64,000 nucleotides of DNA from Eledone cirrhosa. Its lineage: Eukaryota. How positions within the stretch are numbered: position 1 is the stretch's first letter; every line of letters begins with the position of its first letter. The notes beneath the pieces are model-generated. The model was not told the DNA's origin. It saw only the letters and a program-made list of their open reading frames with translations, and made no database searches. The stretch is from assembly GCA_964016885.1 (NCBI GenBank), contig OZ024746.1:37076001-37140000 (forward strand), in the 5' to 3' direction. Below are positions 6,148 to 57,201 of the stretch, piece after piece. The position numbers and the translations under genes are program-made.

Positions 6148-6268
6148 TTATTGACACGTGTTTCTATAACAGTTACATAACCTGAAAACAGCTGCTATCT
6201 ACAAAGTTTTACTTATGCAGACATTCAATATTTCAATGTTATTATTTACTGTCATTTCATCAGAATAA
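6148..6268 (-). ncRNA. Type I hammerhead ribozyme with extended stem II
   Basis: Minus strand: TTATT-CTGATGA-A-ATGACAGT...ACTGTTAT-A-GAAA-C-ACGT-G-TC-AATAA. Core intact, GUC site, palindromic stem III. Confidence 0.8.
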
Positions 6269-7552: not shown

Positions 7553-7675
7553 ATAATTCTGATGAAATGACAGTAAATAATAACATTGAAATATTGAATG
7601 TCTGCATAAGTAAAACTTTGTAGATAGCAGCTGTTTTCAGGTTATGTAACTGTTATAGAAACACGTGTCAATAAA
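7553..7675 (+). ncRNA. Type I hammerhead ribozyme with extended stem II (inverted copy)
   Basis: CTGATGA at 7559-7565, GAAA at 7658-7661, then CACGTG-TC. Stem I has one mismatch relative to the 6148 copy. Confidence 0.75.
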
Positions 7676-7788: not shown

Positions 7789-7912
7789 AGGAGTTGAGTT
7801 TTATTGTAGTACAATAAAGCAATGCAGATATCGGATAAGAAGCACTCTACTGTTTGTAGGACTGGAGTATACATAATATATAAGAACAAAAGATGGTTAA
7901 AAGAGTTCCATG

Positions 7913-7983
7913 TATTTTATTATGCGCATTTCAAAAACAAATATCATCATGCAATAGTATTTGTGTTTTCATCAGATAAAATA
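7913..7983 (-). ncRNA. Type I minimal hammerhead ribozyme
   Basis: Reverse complement of the 8104-8174 motif; core intact. Confidence 0.82.
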
Positions 7984-8103
7984 GGAAGACATGATATGAA
8001 GGTTAAAAAACACTTGTGGATAGTGCAGTTTTAAATCAACATATATGTTGATTTAAAACTGCACTATCCACAAGTGTTTTTTAACCTTCATATCATGTCT
8101 TCC

Positions 8104-8174
8104 TATTTTATCTGATGAAAACACATATATTATTGCATGATGATATTTGTTTTTGAAATGCGCATAATAAAATA
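8104..8174 (+). ncRNA. Type I minimal hammerhead ribozyme
   Basis: TATTTTAT-CTGATGA-AAACACATAT...ATATTTGTTTTT-GAAA-T-GCGC-A-TA-ATAAAATA: 8 bp stem I, intact core, palindromic TGCGCA stem III, AUA cleavage triplet at 8164-8166. Confidence 0.85.
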
Positions 8175-9439
8175 CATGGAACGCTTTTAACCATCTTTTG
8201 TTCTTATATATTATATATATATATATACATATACATACACACATATATAGAAAGAGTGAGAAAGAACAAGAGATGCATATATATTAATTAAAGAAGCTGC
8301 GTAATTAAGTATATATCTCTAGTCTACTGATACGATCTTCTATTTTTAAAGAAATAATTAATTTCTTCCCAAACGGTACAGCTAAATCCTTGGCGCGTGC
8401 TAACTCGTGTATTGCGTTTCTAATTTTAGTTTCCAAGGCAACGAACAACCCATATAATTTTTGAAAATTCTGCTCAGGTGTGGGAATATGGGAGTGAGAA
8501 TACGAATATGCGCGACTCGCTGTAAAGTAACAGAACTGCCTACTTTCTTTCGGCGTAGCCGAAAGTGTGTGCGTGTGATACATCACACTTAACACAATTT
8601 TATGATCAAGAGAGGAAGCAAAATGACGACAATTGTAAATTCTACGAATATTAGGAGTCTCTAAGTCGGTTCGCTGTCGTGAATGATGATATATTTATTT
8701 CAGAATTGCTTACAATCTCATTATTCCTTTCTATATTCTCATTTGATTTATACAGAGTAGTGACCAGCTTCTTAATTAATTTAATTAGTTCAAAATAATG
8801 CCTACAAATACTGTCACGTTCTGCTTAAATAAACTAAAATTGAAACTTCCTTGATTTTATATGCAAAATTGCTAAAATCCATTGTTCTTGTTGACTCGGT
8901 TTTGTAAGTGCAATCTGTCTCAAATAAAGCAACTTTCCAACCACCTTTGTCACACGGCTGCTATAACACCCATCTGCAAACGGAAATGAACTACGATCTT
9001 TTCATATTTCTCTCAGAGATTTCACGCGAACTTCGAAAATGCGAAACATATTACATTTGAATTCTATGAAAAATTACCACGTCAGGTGGTAAATATTCTA
9101 CCACATTAATGACATGACTATGCAAACATTTACATAAAAGTATAAAGTTCTTGTTCTTAATTGTATCGTGTATTATATATATCCTTTATTGGAACGTGGG
9201 TACCCCACCACACACACACACTACCGAACACACACCACACACACCCACGACAACATTATGCCTACGATAGTGCATAACAAACAAATAAGTTTTAGTACAA
9301 CAATCAGCAAAAGATTCAATTATAATTCTAACATAAGAAAAATAAAACGCACACACACACACACCCACGAAACAACAAAAAAACAGCAATCACAATACCT
9401 CGAAGAAATAAATGCTTTTTCGAGAAAACTAAAAAGATA

Positions 9440-23059: not shown

Positions 23060-26000
23060 GTGTGTTTGTTTGTTTATGTGTGTTCGTATACAGCGTGGTG
23101 ATAATGCCACACAAGGGCCAAGTGGGATGGCGGATCCACAGATGGCTATGTAACCATACATTCGCCAATCCTCGATAAGAGTGTTTAAATATCGAACATA
23201 AACAGTTCGAATAACGGTGAAATGGAGACTAGAACGTCATGTGACAGACTCTCACCCAACAGGTGCCCCCTGGCTCAGCAGCAGGAACCTGACTGTCAAC
23301 CAAATACTGCTGATGTTGGAGGAAGGAGAAGAAGAAGGAAAGGGGCCAGAACCAACTGGACGAAAGAATTGAATAGAACTGTTATGCAATGCTACCTGAA
23401 AAGTAACCCCAAGGAGAGGGGCTACAGGAGACGGATGCATAACATCTGGAACGAGATTGGTTTATTTAAATTAGATGAACAAAAATTGGCCGGGAAGGCT
23501 CGGGTAATAAGAACTAATGGGTGGATAAGCGAGCTGGAACTGGAGGAACTGAGCAGAGAGAATGGCTTGGAGATGGCGGGTGTAGTATGCCAGACAAGCG
23601 AGCCAGTGGGAAATGAAGGTGAAGAGGTCCTGAGAACGGAGGAACCACCCGAAGCAGACAATGATCTGAATACTGAGATAAATAATACCTGGAACAGAGA
23701 TACGGCCACTGAGGAGATGAATGCTGACGGGCTAGGACAAGATTCGGTTGACATCCTAAATTTAATGGTAGATGAATTGAACAATGATAGTGGGAGACCT
23801 ATGAACCTAAGATTTGTAGACAGGAAAAAGTTAAAAGAAACAACAGCTAAGGTAAACAAGGTCATCCCATACCTTGAGGCGAGGAGCCTTCACCAGTGCA
23901 ACAATATCCTCAAAGCAAAAGCAAATACGGTGAGGAAACTACTTGGTATAAAAGCGAGAGGAAACAACAGACAAGAAAGAGCAGAGCCGTGGTGGAAGAA
24001 GCGACTGAGTGGGCAAATAGGGGAAATGAGAAATGACATAGGAAAGCTTGAGTCACTACTGAATGGGACACTAAAAAACATAGGCACTAAAAATAGACTG
24101 GAAATAAAATACAAAACTAGGAGTAAAAAGCTAAATATTATCATAGAGGAATTGAAGCAACGCATTGTAGCAAAGAGTGCAAAAATCAGGCGATACGAGA
24201 CAGAGTCAGTCAGTATAAACAGAACCGCATGTTCGACAACAACCAGAAGATGCTGTTTGGACAGCTTGAGGGGAAAGAAAGAGGCAACGACTTGATCCCT
24301 GGGGCGGAACAAACTAAAACATTCTGGAGAGAAATATGGGAGCAGGATGTTAGACACAATGCCCAGGCAGGGTGGATTGAGACAGTACAGAGGGAGATCG
24401 GTGAGCAGGCACAACAACAAACTGATTTGAGTATCACAGTTGAAACTCTTAAGGGGCAAGCCAAAAAACTAACCAACTGGAAATCACCAGGCCCAGATGG
24501 TGTGCAGGGGTATTGGATTAAACATTTAACATCCCTCCACCCGAAGCTGACGGCCATGTTCAATGACTGCTTGGTGTCGGGTGAGGTGCCAGAGTGGTTG
24601 ACAAAAGGTACCACAGTTCTGATAATGAAAGACCGAATCAAGGGTAATGATGTTACCAACTATAGACCTATCACATGTCTGTCCGTAATGTGGAAACTGT
24701 TGACGAGCATTGTGTCTGAGGAAATCTACCATCACCTCCACACAAACAACTTGTTACCGGACGAACAGAAAGGATGCCGAAAGAAGTCACGTGGTACAAA
24801 GACCAGTTACTTATTGATAAGATGGTAATGGGGAATTGCAGGAGGAGACACACTGATCTTGACATGGGATGGATAGACTACAGAAAGGCATTTGACATGG
24901 TGCCTCATTCCTGGATCACCAAAAGCCTGGAGATCTTCAGGGTGGCAGATAACATCAGACAGTTGCTAGGCAGGTGTATGGGGTCCTGGGAGACAGAGTT
25001 GACATCAACTGGAGTATCCTTGGGAAGCGTGAAGATCAAGAGAGGTATCTTCCAGGGAGATAGCCTGTCCCCTCTGTTGTTTGTCCTTGCCCTGATACCC
25101 TTGACCATTATGCTGCGAAGAGTGAGAGCAGGATACAAGTTGGGAAGGGGAGAGCTTACCATCAATCACCTCCTCTTCATGGACGATCTTAAGCTCTTCG
25201 GGAAAAGTGAGAAGGAGTTTGATGTGCTTGTTGACACTGTCCGTATTTTCAGCAGTGATATATGTATGCAGTTTGGTATTGGTAAATGTGGACTCATTGT
25301 GATGAAGAGGGGTAGGTTGAGCAGAAGTAACGGGATCCAGATACCAACAGGTGAGATGATAAATGAAATTGACTCTGAGGAAGGATACAAGTATTTGGGC
25401 GTTCTGGAGGCTGATGGCATAAAGAACAAAAAAATGAAGGAATTGTTAAGAACTGAATACATTCGGAGAGTAAGGAGCGTATTGAAGTCACATCTGAACA
25501 GCAGAAATGCCATAAGCGCAGTAAATTCCCGAGCTGTGTCTATTATTAGGTACAGTGCGGGAATTCTGAGATGGAATGTTGCTGAACAAAAAGAAATGGA
25601 TAGGAAGACTAGGAAGCTATTGACTATCTACAACATGTTCCACAAGAGGAGTGATGTCGATAGACTCTACCTAAGGAGATCTGAGGGTGGAAGAGGTCTT
25701 ATCAGCATAGAGGACTGTGTTCAGATGGAGAAAAACAACCTATACAAATACGTGACCTATAATAAGGAGCCAATGCTCAGAACTGTACTGAAGGAGGGGA
25801 CAGTAGGCCAGGGGATGTCCAAGGAGGAAATAACATCAAGGAGGAAGAGCAGCCTTAAGGGAAAATCCCTTCATAGTACCTTCTTTGAGAAAACTGAATT
25901 TAGAGATCCACAGACATGGAACTGGTTGAGAAGAGGAGACCTCAAAAAGGCTACAGAAGGAATGCTAATGGCTGCGCAGGAGCAGGCCCTCAAAACGAAG

Positions 26001-26691
26001 TGGTTGAAGCACCATATCTACAAGGAGGAGGCTAGCCCACTGTGCAGGATCTGTGGAGAGAGAGAGGAGACTGTGGCCCACATTGTGTCCGAGTGTAAAC
26101 ACCTAGCTCAGACCCACTATAACGGCTGGAGACACGATGTGATGGGCAGGGTGATCCACTGGCACCTGTGCAAAGTAAACAATTTACCACATTCTGAGAA
26201 ATGGTATGAGCATAGGCCAGAGGCGGTGATGGAGAACAATCAGGTGAAGGTGCTGTGGGATTTTAGGATACAGACGGACAAAAAACTGGAACACAATAGA
26301 CCTGACCTGGTGGTTGTGGACAAAGAAAAAAGATCGTGCCTGATTGTGGATGTGGCCTGCCCGTTCGACACGAGAGTGCAAGAGAAGGAGAGGGAGAAAA
26401 TTAACCGATACCAGGACCTAAAGTGGGAGGTGAAAAGGATTTGGAACTGCCATGAAGTCAAAGTGATCCCGATTGTCATAGGCGCACTGGGGACTATCTC
26501 CAAAAGTTTCCAGGGATGGTTAAAGAAAGTCGGCCCCTTCACGCTTTTTGGAACGCTTCAAAAGGCATGCTTGCTTGGAACAGCAAGAACCCTCCGATAC
26601 GTCCTGACTATCTGAGGCTGCAGGTAGTGGCTTGATATTCAATCCAACGGACTTTCCAGTTAACCAACATCAATGACTGAGATTCAAGGAA
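23060..26691 (+). mobile_element. Near full-length R4/Dong-type (RLE-encoding) non-LTR retrotransposon, family A
   Basis: Single long ORF broken by two frameshifts, short 3' UTR (26616-26691), followed by (AAC/AAT)n. The 5' boundary is approximate. Confidence 0.92.
23222..26615 (+). pseudogene. RT + CCHC zinc knuckle + restriction-like endonuclease polyprotein (frameshifts at ~24200 and ~24800)
   Basis: WKSPGPDG, NYRPITCL, IDYRKAFDMVPH, GIFQGDSLSPLLF, LFMDDLKL, YKYLG, CRICGEREETVAHIVSEC, RHD, RPDLVVVDK...IVDVACP, KINRY. Confidence 0.95.
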
Positions 26692-26742: not shown

Positions 26743-28480
26743 TTTCTTTATTAACCACAATGGTTTACATAAAGTAGACATTAAGGACAGTGCAGGACAA
26801 TGCAGGACGGTACAAATGGGCATTTCTGAGTGTAAAAAACAAAAACAGAGGATGTAACAAAAAATAACAATGAAAAATTCCCCAATAGGGGCAGACTTCG
26901 GAGGGACATTTGTGGAGAAAGCCCAGTAAAAAGCCACAATGACCCTGACCACCAAGGCAAGTGCCCTCTCCCAGTTTTCCACCTTTAATTTACAGATATA
27001 TACTCAGAGTAGGCCCATTCACTCGGGCCATTCTTGCTTCTCTCACCCATCTTTCAACAAAATGCTGGGAAGAGAGCACTTCCCTCTCTCCTCTGATTTT
27101 CCTTTTCAAATGAAATTTGAAAAAGTCAATCAGAGCATCACCGAAGAGGTAAGTGCTCGTCTTCAGCCCTTTCAAACGTGTCCACCATACTATCTCTTTC
27201 ACCATGGCCAACGGGCAGATAAAAACTATCTGCCCTTCCCGGCTAAAGGAGGAGGGCGGGGCAATCCTCACGATGGACTCAGATGATAGCCGGATCCGTC
27301 CTAAACGCGACAGCAGGTGTTCGACATAAACCCACAAGTCAGCAATTTTCGGACACTGGACGAGTGCGTGCAGGACGGTTTCGTCGCCCTGCGCGCATCT
27401 CGGACATGCCCGGCTGACGGCACCTCCATGCCTGTGGAGTTTATCCCGAACTGGCAAGGCTCCTCGGTAGCACTGCCAGGCCAGAGATTTCTGGAAGTTG
27501 TCCATAGGCCCTGGCCCGAAAGTTCTTCCGAAGAGATTGGCTAGTTGATTTTCGTCGACGCCTAGAGTTTCCCCAAGTACGTCGTCGCTCTTCCCCTCCA
27601 ATAATCCTCTATAGAACGCCGAGGTGGAGTTTCCACCGATCACATTGCCCGATTGGTCGAGGGCTGTGAGCGCCTGAAGACATTCCAGTCTCCAGGCGCT
27701 CCCTCTCGGTCTTCGCTTGACCCAAGACTGCAGCTCCGTCAAGGAAACGAGCTGGGGAAATACGCGTCTAGCAAACGGCGACTACACCTGATGAGCGTCG
27801 AGGAAGAGGTGGAGATGTCGTAGCCTGAGCGCGTGCCTGCGCATCATCAGCCACGGCATGCCCAGCCCTCCACGTAGCGGGTGTTGACAACAGATGGACC
27901 GCCTGACCATCGCAGCACGTCCCTTCCACAAAAAGCGAAAGAGCAAACGCTCCAGCGCAGTCAGGCGAGGCTTAGGACAAGGTACGACGGTCAGGCGGTA
28001 GCAGATGACAGACGCGATGTACGCGTTAGCCACCTCCGCTCGACCTTTCAGGGATAGTTTCCTCTCCGCCCATTTCTGGGTGAGAGAAGCCACCCTGCTC
28101 GTCACCTCGTCCCAGTTTTTGTCCGTCTGAAGGTCCTGACCGAACCAGACACCTAGCAATTTAACCGTTCCGTCCGTCCAGCGTCCGACGACGCTGTTGG
28201 ACGGCATGGACCTGCCTCTCCAGGTGCCGAGCTGCAGGCCCACTGACTTTTCCTGGTTGATCATTGCTCCTGTCACCGCTTCGTATTCTCTTACTGTAGT
28301 GCCGATCGCCTCGATGTGTTTGACGTTCAACAACACTACGGTGACATCGTCCGCATATGCTGACACGGATCTTCCGCATCCTAGTTCGCGCGGGACGCCC
28401 CTCAACGTCTCCAGTTTGTGCAGTAATGGCTCGAGAGTCAATACGTACAAGAGGGACGAGAGGGGACATCCTTGGCGGAC
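26741..28480 (-). mobile_element. 5'-truncated L1/Tx1-type LINE (RT C-half + C-terminal zinc finger) flanked on both sides by (TAA)n
   Basis: VRQGCPLSSLLYVLTLEPLL, AYADDVT, KLLGVWFG, GGLGMP, CPRC...ETVLHALVQCP; AATAAA lies just before the (ATT)n tail. The N-terminus of the predicted ORF (28481-28768) is microsatellite, not element. Confidence 0.92.
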
Positions 28481-28904
28481 TAATAATAATAATAATAATA
28501 ACGCAACAACAATAACAGCAACAACAACAACAACAACAACAACCATAACCGCAACAACAACAACAACAACAACGACAAACACCTGCATATATATATATAC
28601 ATGATTGGGTTTACGCATGTGTCTCCCTATGAGAGAGATTTTTAGTATTATTGTGAGTATGCCTGTACAAATATATAAAAATGTATATAAGTATGTATGT
28701 ATGTATACGTTCATACATACATGTATACAGACGTACAGTAGTATGTATATATATACATACAAGCACACACATATATATGCACGTATCGGTTTACCGAAAA
28801 TTTATTATAATGTTCCGTTTGTTTGTTTGTAAACAAACAAACAGCCCGAATTACGCCGTACAGTGTTTAGGCAACCACGTCACCCTTTTGTTCAACACTG
28901 ACAC

Positions 28905-38690: not shown

Positions 38691-38876
38691 ATTGTTTCTA
38701 CTGTTAGGCACAAGGCCAGCAATTACCCAGTGCATTTCTGGTACTTTATTTTATCGACCCCGTAAGGATGAAAGGGAAAGTTAACCTCGGCGGGATTTGA
38801 TCTCAGAATGGCAAGGGCCTGTAACTCCATGCGTCAAATCATCGTGTCCGACCCTCTACCGATACTGCCAATTCAC
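38691..38876 (-). mobile_element. tRNA-derived SINE copy
   Basis: Reverse complement of the 18461 family (CTGGTACTTTATTTTATCGACCCCGTAAGGATGAAAGG). Confidence 0.87.
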
Positions 38877-39017
38877 ATAATGTAGTGATAATATATCGTC
38901 ATGTTAGAGAGGAACAGCGTACCTGTAGGTTTGCTCAACGAGTATAAATTATATTCCGGAGAAAATGTAGAAAAGATGAATATAAAATGAAAGTGCTTTT
39001 ATAAAGGAATTTATTAG

Positions 39018-39137
39018 GTATTGACATATGTTTCTGTAACAGACGGAATACCTATGTATCGCTGCTTGCATAATCATATAATGTTAGCATGTATTCGATA
39101 GCAAATGTATATTCAGTTGTCACTTCTTCAGAGATAC
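39018..39137 (-). ncRNA. Type I hammerhead ribozyme with extended stem II
   Basis: Reverse complement of the 40726-40845 motif; core intact. Confidence 0.72.
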
Positions 39138-39772
39138 TGGATAAATTGGAAAACATCAGAAAAATTGAAGTATATATATAAGTTGTAAGCAAGGAAGAAG
39201 GAAGGGGATAGTATATGACAGATGGCAATTGAATTTACTGGTCAACAAGTATATAAAAGGTTTCTTATGAGAATACAATGAGTATATCGCTTATTTTATC
39301 TAAATAAGAATGTTTGTGTGTGCCTATTTCAATCTATACTTGACCAAATGAACAATGGACAGGGCTTGTCGTTTGGTGTAGTAGTATTAATAGATATAAA
39401 GTGTTAATTAAGGAAGAGGGAGATTTTCACTGCTACTGTATAACAACAATGCTGGTAGCCTGGTGGTATATGCATTAGGCGATTGAATTACGAAATCACA
39501 TTTTATTTTTAGCAGTTTATATTAAATAGTAAAGAATAGAAGATTTAATAGAATGAAGACTAATAGAAAATGTTAATATGTATTTTGACAATCAAACGGA
39601 GATGGAAACAGGTGTTCAATCCTGGTAGCATTTGTAATATGAAAATGTAGATTTCAAGCGATGGTTACAGTATAACGATCGCTCTATTCTGTTATTTAAT
39701 AAAATAAAATATTTTTGGATTTCATAATACAAAATAATTCCCTATTACACAATTTACAAAATTCCTGTCCTT

Positions 39773-39856
39773 GGATTCGATAGTACATTTGTATATGATG
39801 TTGCGTTCAAGACACTGATTGTTCAACGGACACATTCCTTGTTGGACACAGTTACA
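39773..39856 (-). pseudogene. Naiad-type CxCx5Cx5C linker and first strand of a GIY-YIG endonuclease
   Basis: Manual translation CNCVQQGMCPLNNQCLERNIIYKCTIES. Confidence 0.85.
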
Positions 39857-39911
39857 GTTATAATTTTTCGTTGTTGTATTGCCATGGATGGGTTGATGAG
39901 GTTGCTTAGGC

Positions 39912-40259
39912 AGGACGGGATGGTGGTACTATGTGGGGTCTAGAGCTACCTCCTTCAAATATCGCCTTTATAGACATCGTTACTCGATAAAACATGAAAG
40001 CCAGCGTTATGTAACAACACTCGCAGCCAAGGCTTGGCAGATGCGCTAAAATAACCAACAATTTAACCTAAAATGGGATATAATAGTTTCTGCTCCTGCT
40101 TTGTCCCAAGGACAGGAATTTGGTAAATTGTGTAATATGGAATTATTTTGTATTATGAAATCCAAAAATATGTTATTAAATAACAGAATAGAGCGATCGT
40201 TATACTGTAACCATCGCTTGAAATCTACATTTTCACATTACAAACGCTACCAGGATTGA
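39912..40259 (+). pseudogene. PLE GIY-YIG endonuclease, YIG half to the C-terminus (one internal stop at 40047)
   Basis: RTGWWYYVGSRATSFKYRLYRHRYSIKHESQRYVTTLAAKAWQMR*NNQQFNLKWDIIVSAPALSQGQEFGKLCNMELFCIMKSKNMLLNNRIERSLYCNHRLKSTFSHYKRYQD*; shows the YVG, conserved R/H, E and LN motifs. Confidence 0.88.
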
Positions 40260-40725
40260 ACGCCTGTCTCCATTTCTGTTTGATTGTCAAAATACATATT
40301 AACATTCTCTATTAGTCTTAATTCTGTCAACTCTTCTATTCTTTACCATTTAATATAAACTGCTATAGATAACATGAGATTTCTTCATTCAATTCCCTAA
40401 TGTATATACCAGCAGGCTACAAGCATTGTAGCAGTGAAAATCTCCCTCTTCCTTAATTAACACTTATATCTATTAATAATACTACACCAAACGACCAGCC
40501 CTGTCCATTGTTCAATAGGTCAACTATAGATTAAAATAGGCGGTCCCAAAAATTCTTATTTAGATAAAATAAGTCATATACTCATTATATTCTCATTAGA
40601 AACCTTCTATATACTTGTTGACCAGTAAATTGAATTGCCATCTGTCATATACTATCCCCTCCCTTCTTCCTTTCTTACTACTAATATAAGTACTTCAATT
40701 TTTCTGATATTTTCCAATTTATCCA

Positions 40726-40845
40726 GTATCTCTGAAGAAGTGACAACTGATTATACATTTGCTATCGAATAATTTCTAACATTATATGATTACGCAAGCA
40801 ACGATACATAGGTATTCCGTCTGTTACAGAAACATATGTCAATAC
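40726..40845 (+). ncRNA. Type I hammerhead ribozyme with extended stem II
   Basis: GTATCT-CTGAAGA-A-GTGACA...TGTTAC-A-GAAA-C-ATAT-G-TC-AATAC; palindromic CATATG, GUC site, imperfect stem I. Confidence 0.72.
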
Positions 40846-40891
40846 CTAATAAATTCCTTTATAAAAGCACTTTCATGTTATATTAATATTT

Positions 40892-40985
<94 letters not shown>

Positions 40986-41068: not shown

Positions 41069-41256
41069 TAATTGTTTCTACATTAGCCACAAGGCCAGCA
41101 ATTACCCAGTACATTACTGGTACTTTATTTTATCGACCCCGTAAGGATGAAAGGCAAAGTTAACCTCGGCGGGATTTGAACTCAGACTGTAAAGGGACGT
41201 AACTATGCTAGAAAGCATGGCGTCCGACCCTCTACCGATACTGCTAATCCACCACC
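41069..41256 (-). mobile_element. tRNA-derived SINE copy
   Basis: Same family; B-box GAGTTCAAATCC on the minus strand. Confidence 0.88.
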
Positions 41257-43069: not shown

Positions 43070-43373
43070 AAAGAAAACAAATAAATAAAACAATTAAACA
43101 AAGCATTTGGTCAAATAATTCCCCAGGGAATTACTATGAACGAAAAGATATGATAGTGCAAATAGCTGGAAACTGCGGTTGTTACTTCTATTAAATCTAA
43201 AGCGTAGTGTATTAATTCACACATGCAAGCATACGCATATTGACACCCACACAAGCAAACGAAAAGATATGATAGTGCAAATAGCTGGAAACTGCGGTTG
43301 TTACTTCTATTAAATCTAAAGCGTAGTGTATTAATTCACACATGCAAGCATACGCATATCGACACCCACACAA

Positions 43374-43407
<34 letters not shown>

Positions 43408-43707
43408 TTGTGTGGGTGTCGATATGCGTATGCTTGCATGTGTGAATTAATACACTACGCTTTAGATTTAATAGAAGTAACAACCGCAGTTTCCAGCTAT
43501 TTGCACTATCATATCTTTTCGTTTGCTTGTGTGGGTGTCAATATGCGTATGCTTGCATGTGTGAATTAATACACTACGCTTTAGATTTAATAGAAGTAAC
43601 AACCGCAGTTTCCAGCTATTTCCACTATCATATCTTTTCGTTCATAATAATTCCCTGGGGAATTATTTGACCAAATGCTTTGTTTAATTGTTTTATTTAT
43701 TTGTTTT

Positions 43708-43711
<4 letters not shown>
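43070..43711. repeat. ~640 bp near-perfect palindrome centred on (TA)n; each arm contains a 119 bp tandem duplication
   Basis: CGAAAAGATATGATAG at 43141 and 43260, mirrored after the (TA)n at 43376-43405; identical 75 aa ORFs are predicted on both strands. Confidence 0.97.
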
Positions 43712-51164: not shown

Positions 51165-53671
51165 TCTTTTAGATGCACGCTGGGACTGTGTGGGATTAGC
51201 GGATAGGGGAGGAGAGTGTAAGAGCTTCACAAACCTGCTCAGACGGTTTCAACTCTCTTACTTGTACCGTCTGGATTTCCCGAATGTGCCAATGTGGACA
51301 TGGACAGACCGCATACTGTTATCCAAATCATATGAGGATAGAGTATTTTGTAAGGAAATAGATAGGTCTAGCATAGGCTGACCACAATTTAAAATAGTCA
51401 ACTACAGGGATCACACATTGGCGATCTGTGAAGTCGATTTAGATAGGCTTCATATACGAGGACCCGGCTACTGGAAGCTAAACGCGTCGTTAACAGCGCG
51501 CAAGGCCTACATAGAGCGGATTAGCGAACTAGTTAAGCGGGCGTTGACGTGGGACATCGTCAACAACAAATGGTGGTTTGCTCTGAAAAGAGCGATTAGA
51601 TTAGAGTTCATTAATTTTAGTAAGGCGTTAGCAATAAAGAAAATTGGAGCAGAGGGAGAACTAGTTAGAAAACTAGATGATGCGCTTGGTAAAGGCGTCG
51701 CAACCGAAGTGCTTTCAGCGAAATTGGCCCTCGACCAATTCTTCAATGCAATCGTTGCGAAAAGCCGGATTGTTGCGAAAAGCCGATAACTGCCGCTGAA
51801 GTACGAGAGGCAATGACTGGCTCCACAAACGGCAAACCGCCTGGTTTGGATGGTCTGCCCTACGAACTTTACGTACATATACCAGACTTGTTCGGAGACC
51901 TCTTTGCGGACGTCTACTGCAACTGGCAACAGAACTGGATAACATAGATAATTTCAGGCCCATAACACTGCTAAACACAGAGTTCAAGATTGTGGCGAAG
52001 GTGCTAGCAAAGAGGTTGGCTCTTGTCATTGGTGGTCTGGTAGGCGAGACGTAGACATGCGCTATGCCAGACAGATCTATCCACGACAATTTCCACCTCA
52101 TTCGATACATCATGGAGAGGGTACCTAGGGAACCTGGAACGGGTGGGTCCTTGAATAATATAGATCAGTCGAAAGTTTTCGATAGGGTCGACCATCATTA
52201 TCTGGTAGCAGTCGTGAGGGCGGCTGGATTTGGGCCCATAATTAGAGACTGGATTGCTGCCATGCGCAGCCGCAACTGCTCTGTGGCGTGAATGGTCACC
52301 TTTCGGAACCGCTCGGTCCGCTAAGGATGTCTCCTCTCGTCACTATTGTACGTATTGACTCTCGAGCCATTACTCCACAAACTGGAGACTTTGAGGGGTG
52401 TCCCGCGCGAACTGGGATGCGGAAGATCCGCGACAGCATATGCAGACGATGTCATCTTAGTGGTGTTGAACGAGAAACACATCGAGGCGATCGGTACTAC
52501 ATGAAGAGAATACAAGATGGTGATAGGAGCAATAATCAACCTGCAAATGTCGGTGGGCCTGCAGCTCGGCATCTGGAGAGGCAGGTGCATGCTATCCAAC
52601 AGCTTCGTCGGGCGCTGGACGGCGGGACCAGTTAACAAGGTGGCTAACCAGTACATCGCGTCCGTCATCTGCTACCGCCTGACCCTCGTACCTTGTCCTA
52701 AGCCCCGCCTGACTGCGCTGGAGCGTTTGCTCTTTCGCTTTTTTTTGAAAGGGACGCGCTCCGATGGTCAGGCAGTCAATCTGCTGTCAACACCCGCTAC
52801 GTGGAGGGCTGGTCATGCCGTGGCTGATGATGCGCAGATACGCGCTCTGTCTACGACATCTCCACCTCTCCCTCGACGGTGATCCGGTGTGGTCGCCGTT
52901 TGCTAGACGCGTCTTTTCCCAGCTCGTCTCCTTGACGGAGCTGCAGTCATGGGTCAAGCGAAGACCGAGTGGGAGCGTTTGGAGACTGGAATGTCTTCAG
53001 GCGCTCACAGCCCTTGACCAGTCGGGCAATGCGATCGGTGGAAACTCCACCTTGGCGCTCGTCCAGTGTCCGAGCATTGTTGACTTGTGGGTTTATGTCA
53101 AACAACTTCTGTCGCGTGTAGGTCTGATCCGGCTATCAACTGAGTCCATCGTGAGAATTGCCCCGCCCTCTTCCTCTAGCCGGGAACGGCAGGAAGTTTT
53201 TCTCTGTCTGGTGGCCATGGCGAGAGAGATATTATGGTGGACACGTTTGAAAGTGTCGAAGACGAGCACTTACGTCTTCGGTGATGCCCTGATTGACTTT
53301 TTCAAATTTCATTTTAAAAGGAAAATCAGGGTAGAGAAGGAAGTGTTCTCTTCCCAGCATTTTGTTGAAAGATGGGTGAGAGAAGCAAGAATGGCCCGAG
53401 TGAATGGGCCTACTCTGTATATTAAAGGTGGAAAACTGGGAGAGGGCACTTGCCTTGGTGGTCAGGGTCACTGTGGCCTTTTAATGGGCTTTCTCCACAA
53501 ATGTCCCTCCGAAGTCTCCCTCCTATTGGGGAATTTTTCATTGTTATTTTTTTGTTACATCGTCTGTTTTTGTTTTCTACACGCAGAAATGCCCATTTCT
53601 ACCGTCCTGTATTGTCCTGAACTATCCTTAATGTCTACTTTATGTAAACTATTGTGGTTAATAAAGAAATC
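51165..53671 (+). mobile_element. L1/Tx1-type LINE, decayed with internal deletions (AP-endonuclease end + RT + C-terminus)
   Basis: WTWTD, DRVF, GPGYWKLNASL, NFRPITLLNTEFKI, IDQSKVFDRVDH, AYADD. The 3' UTR is nearly identical to 26741-26990 and ends AATAAAGAAATC(ATT)n. Confidence 0.92.
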
Positions 53672-53712
53672 ATTATTATTATTACTATTATTATTATTAT
53701 TATTATTATTAT

Positions 53713-55785
53713 TTGCATTTATCTTGCTTTATGTTTATACGAGTTATCACCAAGTCACAACCAGTGACCTCAAGAGACAACAAGGTCCGCCATGTTCAAG
53801 AAAGAACATACATATTCACACATGCATCCTTAGTGTTTAGACTTGTGATGTACTTATATTGACAGAATATTCCTTAGTATATGGGCAGTTCCCATTAGTA
53901 CTATCTTTTGTATTTCTCCTATACGCGGGTTTCCTGGGATTTGCGATAAGTAGTCGTTAGACCCCTTAGGTATCATTCCCAGAGCGCCTACAACCACTGG
54001 TATTGTTTTAGTTCTCAATTTCCACATTTTTCCAATTTCTATCTCCAGGTCCTTATACTTGCTCAATTTTTCAAATGTTTTTATAGATACATTCTTGTCT
54101 ATTGGAACAGACATATCAATTAGCAGGCATACCCTCCTTTGAAAGTCCTTCAATATTATATCAGGTTTATTTGCATCTATTTTTCGGTCTGTTTGGATGC
54201 TAAAGTTCCACAAGATTGAGATGTGATCTTTTTCAAGTATGGGAGGTGGTTGATGCTCCCACCAATTCTTTTCATGGGGCAGGTCAAAATGCTTACACAT
54301 TATCCAATGTATGTATTGTGCAGCTCTGTCATGCCTGTTTAGGTATTCGGTTGGAGCTATAGGACTGCACATTGAAATTATATGGTCAATGGTCTCTGGT
54401 TGTTTTTTGCATACACGGCATAATGGGCTGCACCCATTTTTTATTATGTTGGCTTGGTAATTTTTTGTTGGCAGACACTGATCTTGTGCCGATATAATCA
54501 GTCCTTCAGTCTCCGATTTCAGTCCAGAGGATGCCAACCACTGATGGGTTAAAGTTTTGTCAACATCAGGATTGTTAGCTCGCTCTGGGTATTTTCCATA
54601 CAGAGGCTTTTCTTGCCATTTCTTAGCCAGTTTCTGTAGCAGTTCTTTCTTTGCAGTTACTTTTACCTGCTTGCTTTTTCTGTGTTTTCCATTTCAGCAG
54701 TAAATGGGACTTCTGAAATTTGTAGTCCATTACTGTATCTTTGTGCATCTTTTGTAATGGAATATGATCTTTTGGTGCTTTCGTGTTTCAAAACGAGTTT
54801 GATCATCCAATCATGTGATTCCCTTAGATATGTGGATAATCCAATTGTTGCAATTTTCAACGCAATGTCTAACTGGATTAACCCACGTCCTCCTTCTTTC
54901 CTAGGGAGATATATTCTATCTATGTCTGCCTTAGGGTGATGCATTCTGTGCATGGTTAAGAATTTTCGGATTTTTGTATCGAGCCTACGGATCTCTGTGC
55001 TTGACCAGTTGATGACATTGTAACTGTAGGTTACTACTGGTATGGCAAGCGTGTTTATGGCATCGATCCTATTCCTTGCATTCAATTCCGTTCTTAAGAT
55101 TGCTCTGACTCTGCGGTAACATTCCTTCCTTATCCTTTCCCTCATTGTCGAGTGCTTGATTCCGTCTCCTTCACAAACACCTAGATATTTGTAAGTTTGT
55201 TCTTGATCAAGCTCTCTTATCACGTTCCCCCGATCAAGATTAATGTCTGAACTCTTCAGCAGCTTTCCTCTGGTGAACGTTGCTTTGGCGCATTTATCCA
55301 GTCCAAACTCCATTTTAATGTCATCACTGAACTGCTTCACAGTGGATAATAGCCCTTGCACTTGTTCATCATTTTTTGCAAATAGTTTCAGGTCATCCAT
55401 GTAGAACAGGTGATTAATGGTTTTGTCATAGACTCTATATCCATGTTTTGTTTCATTAAGCATTTTACTTAATGGTATAAGTGCGATGCAGAATAAAAGC
55501 GGTGATAAAGAGTCACCCTGAAAAACTCCACAATTAATGTTAACTTCTCCAGCTTCCAGTGATTTTGTTTCACTATTCAAAAGGAGTGTCGTTCTCCATG
55601 TCCTCATACTGAATGACAAAAACCTCCTGACAACGGGGGATATTTTGAAAATCTCTAAACATTTTTCAATACAACTGTGTAGCAAACTATCAAGTGCTTT
55701 TTTATAATCTATCCAAGCAATCGATAGATTTTTGTGTTTATTATGACAATCTTCCAGTATCATTTTGTTAACCAGAAGCTGATCC

Positions 55786-55787
<2 letters not shown>
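53713..55787 (-). mobile_element. 5'-truncated R4/Dong-type element, family B, flanked on both sides by (TAA)n
   Basis: KDQLLVNKM, IDYKKALDSLLH, VFQGDSLSPLLF, LFYMDDLKL, CRVC...ETIDHIISMC, RHD, KPDIILKD; frameshift near 54660. Clearly distinct from family A at the DNA level. Confidence 0.93.
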
Positions 55788-55823
<36 letters not shown>

Positions 55824-55830
55824 GTTGTTA

Positions 55831-56887
55831 TTCCTTGAATCTCAGTCATTGATGTTGGTTAACTGGAAAGTCCGTTGGATTGAATATCAAGCCACTACCT
55901 GCAGCCTCAGATATTCAGGACGTATCGGAGGGTTCTTGCTGTTCCAAGCAAGCATGCCTTTTGAAGCGTTCCAAAAAGCGTGAAGGGGCCGATTTTCTTT
56001 AACCATCCCTGGAAACTTTTGGAGATAGTCCCCAGTGCGCCTATGACAATCGGGATCACTTTGACTTCATGGCAGTTCCAAATCCTGTTCACCTCCCACT
56101 TTAGGTCCTGGTATCGGTTAATTTTCTCCCTCTCCTTCTCTTGCACTCTCGTGTCGAACGGGCAGGCCACATCCACAATCAGACAGGATCTTTTTTCTTT
56201 GTCCACAACCACCAGGTCAGGTCTATTGTGATCCAGTTTTTTTGTCCGTCTGTATCCTAAAATCCCACAGCACCTTCACCTGATTGTTCTCCATCACCGC
56301 CTCTGGCCTATGCTCATACCATTTCTGAGAATGTGGTAAATTGTTTACTTTGCACAGGTGCCAGTGGATCACCCTGCCCATCACATCGTGTCTCCAGCCC
56401 TTAAAGTGGGTCTGGGCTAGGTGTTTACACTCGGACACAATGTGAGCCACAGTCTCCTCTCTCTCTCCACAGATCCTGCACAGTGGGCTAGCCTCCTCCT
56501 TGTAGATATGGTGCTTCAACCACTTCGTTTTGAGGGCCTGCTCCTGCGCAGCCATTAGCATTCCTTCTGTAGCCTTTTTGAGGTCTCCTCTTCTCAACCA
56601 GTTCCATGTCTGTGGATCTCTAAATTCAGTTTTCTCAAAGAAGGTACTATGAAGGGATTTTCCCTTAAGGCTGCTCTTCCTCCTTGATGTTATTTCCTCC
56701 TTGGACATCCCCTGGCCTACTGTCCCCTCCTTCAGTACTGTTCTGAGCATTGGCTCCTTACTATAGGTCACGTATTTGTATAGGTTGTTTTTCTCCATCT
56801 GAACACAGTCCTCTATGCTGATAAGACCTCTTCCACCCTCAGATCTCCTTAGGTAGAGTCTATCGACATCACTCCTCTTGTGGAACA

Positions 56888-56891
<4 letters not shown>
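55831..56891 (-). mobile_element. 5'-truncated copy of Dong-type family A
   Basis: Near-identical to 25631-26691 (MFHKRSDVDRLY...RYVLNI plus 3' UTR); one frameshift at ~56240; (TAA)n on both sides. Confidence 0.95.
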
Positions 56892-56921
<30 letters not shown>

Positions 56922-56930
56922 GTTGTTGTT

Positions 56931-57201
56931 CTTTGAGTCTCAGTTAATGATGTTATTTAACTGGAAAGTTTGTTGAATTGAATATTAAGCCGCTACCTGC
57001 ATCCTCAGACATTCAGGACGTATCGGTGGGTTCTTGCTGTTCCCTGCAAGCATGTCTTTTGAAGTGTTCCAAAAAGCGGGGCTGGACTAATCTTCTTTAA
57101 CCATCCTTGGAAACTCTTTGAGATAGAACCTAGTGCACCTATGACAATCCGGACTACCTTGATTTCATGGTAGTTCCAAATCCTTTTTAACTCCCACTTT
57201 A
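56931..57201 (-). mobile_element. Older, diverged 3'-end fragment of Dong-type family A
   Basis: Aligns with 55833-56105 with many substitutions. Confidence 0.9.

Follow-up and report, generated by a model that had tools for sequence, protein, structure and literature searches.

A decayed Hydra-clade Penelope-like element hammerhead in Eledone cirrhosa from a lineage with a predicted rod-like, probably selected stem II arm of about 90 nt

Hammerhead motifs of metazoan Penelope-like elements (PLEs) are described with a helix II of 6–8 bp (PMC4209133, Cervera and de la Pena 2014), and tandem PLE hammerheads are reported to pair through a palindromic stem III and to cleave slowly, probably with helpers (PMC4209133, PMC6765202). 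For the Hydra clade, the tabulated motifs have a stem II of 3–7 bp and a loop 2 of 3–10 nt (7 bp and 8 nt in the octopus element Hydra-1_oBim), and the longest non-canonical loop in the same table, about 33 nt, belongs to PLE-X1_sMoe, which is not a Hydra element (PMC8557442 File S2, Craig et al. 2021). The hammerhead of the anole PLE PAc is described as cleaving only with the element's protein (PMC11167929, Frangieh et al. 2024). Metazoan PLE hammerheads cleave poorly without helpers.

The motif analyzed here lies at 40726–40845 on the forward strand of a 64-kb stretch of Eledone cirrhosa DNA, referred to as the window. Its core box CUGANGA reads CTGAAGA (40732–40738) and is followed by a 90-nt extended stem II insert (40739–40828), predicted as an unbranched rod, by the GAAA box (40829–40832), the palindromic stem III CATATG (40833–40838) and a GUC triplet with a predicted cut after C40840, the GAAA-to-C block spanning 40829–40840. 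Between 40732 and 40840, both type I hammerhead boxes (CUGANGA and GAAA), A15.1-U16.1 and a NUH triplet are present; we class the locus as a decayed type I PLE hammerhead motif with a palindromic stem III. An earlier note on this DNA had proposed a long-stem-II hammerhead here, with an insert of ~90 nt and the palindrome CATATG; the hammerhead boxes, a 90-nt insert, CATATG and GTC are all found in the sequence. Stem I is weak, its 5′ strand (40726–40731) forming one contiguous pair with the 3′ strand (40841–40845) before a C.A mismatch or a bulged C. Within the insert, a basal helix GTGACA/TGTTAC (40740–40745/40822–40827), with an unpaired A on either side, is followed by a TATCG/CGATA helix (40763–40767/40802–40806). 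An anchored comparison of six families further delineated two internal-loop motifs: CAUU (40756–40759) facing UAGG (40809–40812), with C-G, A.G, U-A and U.U predicted, and GAAU (40767–40770), whose partner AGC (40800–40802) reads AAC in this copy. An AATAAA lies at 40848–40853, just 3′ of the predicted cut, and at the equivalent place in families F1 and F5.

Compared with the commonest variant of its family, F2, the forward copy is changed at 3 of 90 insert positions (40772, 40775 and 40801), all in the upper helix, and one of these changes destroys the conserved AGC loop strand. Its insert accordingly folds like shuffled sequence (z −0.51; 84 of 300 shuffles equally good), as does the whole motif (z −0.09). 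A second F2 hammerhead with a 90-nt insert on the reverse strand (39131–39023) also carries three differences from the commonest variant and folds with z −1.62. The same damage bears on the nested pairs quoted previously: GTGACA/TGTTAC and TATCG/CGATA are present in the forward copy, TGC/GCA is broken by a G>T change at 40775, and the supposed GAATAT/GTATTC helix falls away, GAATAT arising only through a private T>A in the minus copy (39112), where the commonest variant reads GATTAT. Because the window copy is damaged, all statements about the lineage rest on family copies. No Rfam hammerhead family occurred among the best 150 of 193 window matches at E ≤ 1, the matches listed being microsatellite-driven miRNA/snoRNA noise only; short-arm hammerheads of the window were absent from them too, so this miss does not single out the long arm. 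A reading as a SECIS element was rejected by eye, as there is no tandem G.A core and the F1 frame is open over 777 aa.

A truncated and inverted PLE carries the motif in its 3′ UTR. One 5′-truncated arm (38877–39925, reverse strand; blastn to the natural F2 copy L232, inverted repeats) holds the end of the endonuclease region, the 3′ UTR, a hammerhead and a longer 3′ 'tail'; the other (39923–40894, forward strand) is also 5′-truncated, includes a GIY-YIG endonuclease region fragment (39924–40079, forward; tblastn and profile match, 88% identical to a longer family copy) and terminates in a (TC)n/(TA)n run. On either side of the element lies a copy of a SINE-like repeat, both on the same strand (about 38700–38875 and 41083–41255). 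In the near-full-length L232, hammerheads stand on both sides of the ORF, in tandem pseudo-LTR arrangement, and the ORF starts about 210 nt after the cut. A Pfam search returned no useful match. The L232 ORF contains RWK, DKT, YRDD, CxCX5C and GIY-YIG-like motifs, with Hydra-type instances RIRWKTF, RADKTSN and CNCVQPGMC; in other copies, CxxC and CxH (FCKLC, CNH) are found close to where the endonuclease ends. Set beside the Hydra-clade protein criteria given in section 11 of PMC8557442, these predicted protein motifs, together with (TA)n targets (the 3′ ends of F2 abut (TA)n or (TC)n(TA)n), match the F2 element to the Hydra clade. Identity as a non-LTR retrozyme was rejected, since copies are dispersed, inverted or flanking a coding ORF and are not short non-coding tandem repeats. 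Two fixed F2 3′ ends lie ~107 nt apart (window 38877–38968; L453, L454, L456), at about 60 and 168 nt beyond the cut site, and the F2 'tail' is longer than the 30–40 bp given in PMC8557442. A DNA search of the 3.0-Gb genome yielded 1,663 candidate F2 copies. Complementarily, the exact F1+F2 pattern matched 4,465 times genome-wide as against 0 in a reversed control, and with an F2 share of 38 in the first 100 of these 4,465 rows, counted by eye, this corresponds to roughly 1,700 core-intact F2 copies.

Scanning the window with the pattern CTGANGA-insert-GAAA-palindrome-TH resulted in six matches, which form three inverted pairs from families F1, F2 and F3. F1 has a 92-nt insert and the palindrome CACGTG (7559–7669, forward; inverted copy at 6263–6153, reverse). 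The change from CACGTG to CATATG, previously read as compensatory, reflects the palindromic stem III already described for dimeric PLE hammerheads and does not mark a new subtype. F3 has the palindrome TGCGCA and an insert of only 36 nt (8112–8166, forward; copy at 7921–7975, inverted relative to it) and is thus a counter-example to a fixed insert length within the window itself. The F3 element is a perfect fold-back with 176-nt arms and no spacer (7868–8219), and a second perfect fold-back without spacer, with 321-nt arms, lies at 43070–43711. The window also holds non-LTR retrotransposon fragments with a reverse transcriptase (RT) and a C-terminal restriction-like endonuclease (23189–26615, forward; 53854–56939, reverse), which we take to be of R4/Dong or Hero type, and L1/Tx1-like RT pieces at 26990–28801 and 51382–53840.

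Insert lengths are 88–93 nt in F1, 90 nt in F2 and F5 and 81–84 nt in F6, at protein identities of 69% (F1–F2), 58% (F2–F5) and 54% (F1–F5). To place the arm phylogenetically, we built FastTree trees with local supports from the natural ORF fragments adjoining each motif, covering the families with recoverable ORFs. The first comprised 22 rows and the second 38, including 13 outside homologues; the outgroup consisted of homologues at 32–40% identity, one of them from Apostichopus japonicus. The four F6 rows owe their assignment to DNA similarity with an F6 locus and not to an intact motif on the same fragment; L99 is a degraded, possibly mixed fragment of unreliable position, and L82 was omitted from the second tree. 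In the 38-row tree, the long-arm families F1, F1b, F2 and F5 form a clade with support 0.999 (0.92 with F6 added), and short-arm families with 30–36-nt inserts form a separate clade (0.98); the 22-row tree supported the long-arm/short-arm grouping with 0.995 and 0.95. F1 and F2 are sisters (0.986). The extension that the earlier note saw as shared with family 1 is therefore shared by descent between sister lineages and not convergent.

Across the genome, a pattern requiring an alternating six-base palindrome-type stem III, and hence missing other hammerhead forms, gave 108,604 hammerhead-like matches as against 334 in controls; the Xenopus hammerhead count is given as 9,000, far below this (PMC4209133). 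Binned by insert length, genome and control matches numbered 70,594 and 125 for 5–35 nt, 31,295 and 58 for 36–66 nt, 6,004 and 78 for 67–97 nt and 711 and 73 for 98–128 nt. The hammerhead families of this genome have inserts ranging from about 20 to 123 nt and 94% of all matches have inserts of at most 66 nt, so that the idea of a length kept throughout its PLE hammerheads did not survive; with 67–97-nt inserts a minority of 6% (6,004 of 108,604), the long arm is a lineage trait and not the rule. Further long-insert families comprise L085, L086, L089 and L105–L110 (109–115 nt), L103–L104 (123 nt), L065, L100 and L101 (85–104 nt) and L077, L208 and L209 (93–123 nt); they lack the paired internal-loop motif described below, one is predicted to branch, and no adjoining PLE ORF was found for them. 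L111–L119, with 57–61-nt inserts and varied palindromes (CGCGCG, CACGTG, CATATG), seem to be a separate intermediate class. Searches for ORFs of F4, F7, F8 and F10 found none, the F10 coding-copy search being swamped by microsatellites. Metagenomes gave at least 119 pattern matches, which we attribute to chance: among the matches listed, none matched a PLE profile, none had both loop motifs and none combined palindrome, rod and stem I.

Synonymous sites look saturated between F1, F2 and F5, four-fold third positions being identical at 65/163 (F1–F2), 20/59 (F2–F5) and 15/57 (F1–F5), that is, at 0.26–0.40. The ORF-to-motif distance differs among the three families, blastn found no match between their upstream UTRs, and five upstream UTR windows aligned no better than shuffles (mostly |z| < 1.7, one 2.7); insert similarity, in turn, reached z 2.6–6.2. 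Inserts of the commonest variants were predicted to form closed, unbranched rods in F1a (z −4.9), F1b (z −3.6), F2 (z −2.69, rounded −2.7, with 2/300 shuffles equally good) and F5 (z −2.5), and 8–25 of 300 shuffles yielded such a closed rod. In each of three elements, none of the 16 windows had a lower fold z than the insert, and the sense strand was more stable than the antisense strand in all six families. Single copies of old families folded weakly, with z below −2 in two of ten F6 and one of seven F7 copies. Length and hairpin shape had been claimed to persist while the sequence differs; this holds for F1, F2 and F5, with predicted rods of 88–93 nt, but not for the forward copy in the window, which folds like shuffles.

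Two internal loops recur in the predicted rods, YAUU/YAGR (a pair, A.G, U-A, U.Y) and GANU/AGC (G-C, A.G, a bulge, U-A), 11–12 nt apart on the 5′ strand. Both together occurred in 24/26 distinct inserts of F2, 25/27 of F1 and 16/17 of F5, and in 6/10 of F6, 3/5 of F10 and 3/10 of F7. Elsewhere the double motif appeared in 0/10 F4, 0/7 F8 and 1/34 other long inserts (1/51 together), and in about 1 in 1,000 shuffles or fewer. The pattern was defined on these same families and relaxed once to take in F6, in which the stricter first version matched 0/10. About ten positions showed two-sided, pairing-preserving changes in a loop-anchored alignment that was registered by hand with anchors chosen by the analyst. 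An alignment-independent covariation test, with the fold mapped via a sequence-only alignment, was significant in none of ten comparisons (p < 0.05; best p 0.06), in part because registers slip; for the same reason, RNAalifold recovered only 17 pairs on a MAFFT alignment. A covariance model of F2 and F5 inserts placed F1 inserts (L041, L163; L032, L047, L155, L171, L161) in exact register, at non-significant E values of 0.07–4.6 and with scores below that of a chance TA-rich match, and a sequence-only model found no F1 insert. Together, the retention of length, predicted rod fold and two A.G loops despite apparently saturated synonymous sites and an unalignable UTR makes selection on the arm, as suggested before, likely, although no comparison in the covariation test on sequence-only alignments was significant.

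Regarding catalysis, no long-arm family has lost the core boxes, the palindrome or the cleavage triplet, CATATG occurring in 53/55 F2 records, and cofolding of family copies gave an 8-bp intermolecular stem III helix. Fold-back junctions in F1 and F2 are centred exactly on the stem III palindrome (C7:66953709, C3:26493019, C5:132709974). Stem I measures 7–8 bp in most short-arm records as against 1–5 bp in long-arm families, with five pairs in 53/54 F1 records and F2 weakest, at one contiguous pair in 54/55 records (4–5 pairs counting the bulged C); it does not form when folding is run with an open core. F1, F2 and F5 all lack the G10.1-C11.1 pair, the F2 stem II closing near the core through its 6-bp basal helix flanked by A.A. 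With neither this pair nor more than one pair in stem I, F2 may not cleave. At first sight, 5′ junctions of F2 copies suggested past cleavage, with 9/25 events exactly at the cut (by eye; p about 0.001 against a rough expectation of 0.11), counted after dropping five single-indel rows, two internal deletions, two fold-back rows and one duplicate. We treat the excess as an edge effect and not as support, as shifting the anchor 12 nt downstream produced a similar pile-up at +6..+10 (nine events versus two at the cut) and F1 showed 2/13 junctions at the cut though its stem I is better.

The account that we favour, with somewhat more confidence than doubt, is that of a decayed Hydra-clade PLE type I hammerhead whose 81–93-nt rod arm is selected and would serve as a protein platform. 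In tandem transcripts, two hammerheads would pair with each other by way of their palindromic stem III and cleave 3′ of GUC; as stem I alone is too short to stabilise the fold, the long arm would offer a putative docking site to the RT-endonuclease protein of the element, or to a different RNA chaperone, which may license cleavage and handle the RNA. The two loops lie about one helical turn apart and probably too far out for the usual loop I–II contact, which would fit a protein-docking face. This gating step by itself is tentative and, taken alone, rather unlikely. Equally tentative is the broader proposal of a natural protein-gated ribozyme switch, created when a Hydra-type clade inserted a distinct, conserved rod of 90 nt, its two A.G loops facing the same side of the helix, within stem II at the expense of a stable stem I; if true, the hammerhead would cut only with the element's RT-endonuclease docked on the arm, timing RNA processing in retrotransposition.

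The arm may instead be selected for a non-catalytic job, such as stabilising the RNA, handling the template while it is reverse-transcribed or providing a DNA-level signal within the pseudo-LTR promoter, with stem II merely tolerating the insertion and the F2 ribozyme possibly inactive. F2 has spread despite its one-pair stem I, its copies ending about 60 or 168 nt past the cut imply templates left uncut at the 3′ motif, cleavage is reported to be dispensable for in vitro insertion of the anole PLE (PMC11167929), and conserved loops 17–31 nt from the core are likely too far away for a loop I–loop II contact. All long-arm families nevertheless retain core boxes, palindrome and cleavage triplet, and the sense-strand G.U pairs argue for RNA rather than a DNA-level constraint, so that we regard this alternative as possible but doubtful. 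That the arm is carried along neutrally, as an ancient fold-back insertion passed down to a few sister families and tolerated provided that stem II closes at its base, would agree with arm lengths of about 20 to 123 nt among the families of the genome, with the long arms of F4 and F8 that lack the double motif, with the ease with which these elements make fold-backs and with the non-significant covariation test (0/10). We consider it improbable, as the length has stayed within 88–93 nt and neither motif has been lost although synonymous sites look saturated and the UTR has diverged in sequence as well as length, and as the two sides of the rod are imperfect complements that rely on G.U pairs.

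With the PLE hammerheads of PMC4209133, as described there, the long-arm hammerheads share the pseudo-LTR position, type I topology, short helix I, small palindromic helix III, an extra nucleotide after A9, close opposite-strand copies and many sequence families per genome; unlike those, they have a stem II of about 90 nt in which internal loops are conserved, and F1, F2 and F5 lack G10.1-C11.1. Protein motifs, (TA)n targets and a core-adjacent mismatch (U.U in many tabulated families) are common to Hydra-clade hammerheads, whereas their tabulated stem II of a few base pairs and short loop contrasts with the ~90 nt seen here (PMC8557442). As in PAc, the hammerhead lies near the pseudo-LTR/ORF junction and there are two fixed 3′ ends, with and without tail; PAc, however, belongs to the Poseidon clade and its ORF starts inside stem II, compared with about 210 nt after the cut here, and its published description mentions no long arm in the sections on the hammerhead (PMC11167929). 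Our literature search found no description of a 90-nt stem II in PLEs, although other surveys or supplements may list long variants, and the main text of a 2026 octopus repeat annotation contains neither 'hammerhead' nor 'ribozyme' (PMC13282606). Descriptors limiting stem II and loop 2 to short lengths would overlook thousands of hammerhead motifs in a genome (6,004 with 67–97-nt inserts here). A conserved, mutable extra domain with matched short-arm relatives in one genome offers a direct handle on protein-assisted cleavage. PLE hammerheads, their palindromes and their family diversity were already known; the new part is a lineage-specific long-arm variant that is probably under selection.
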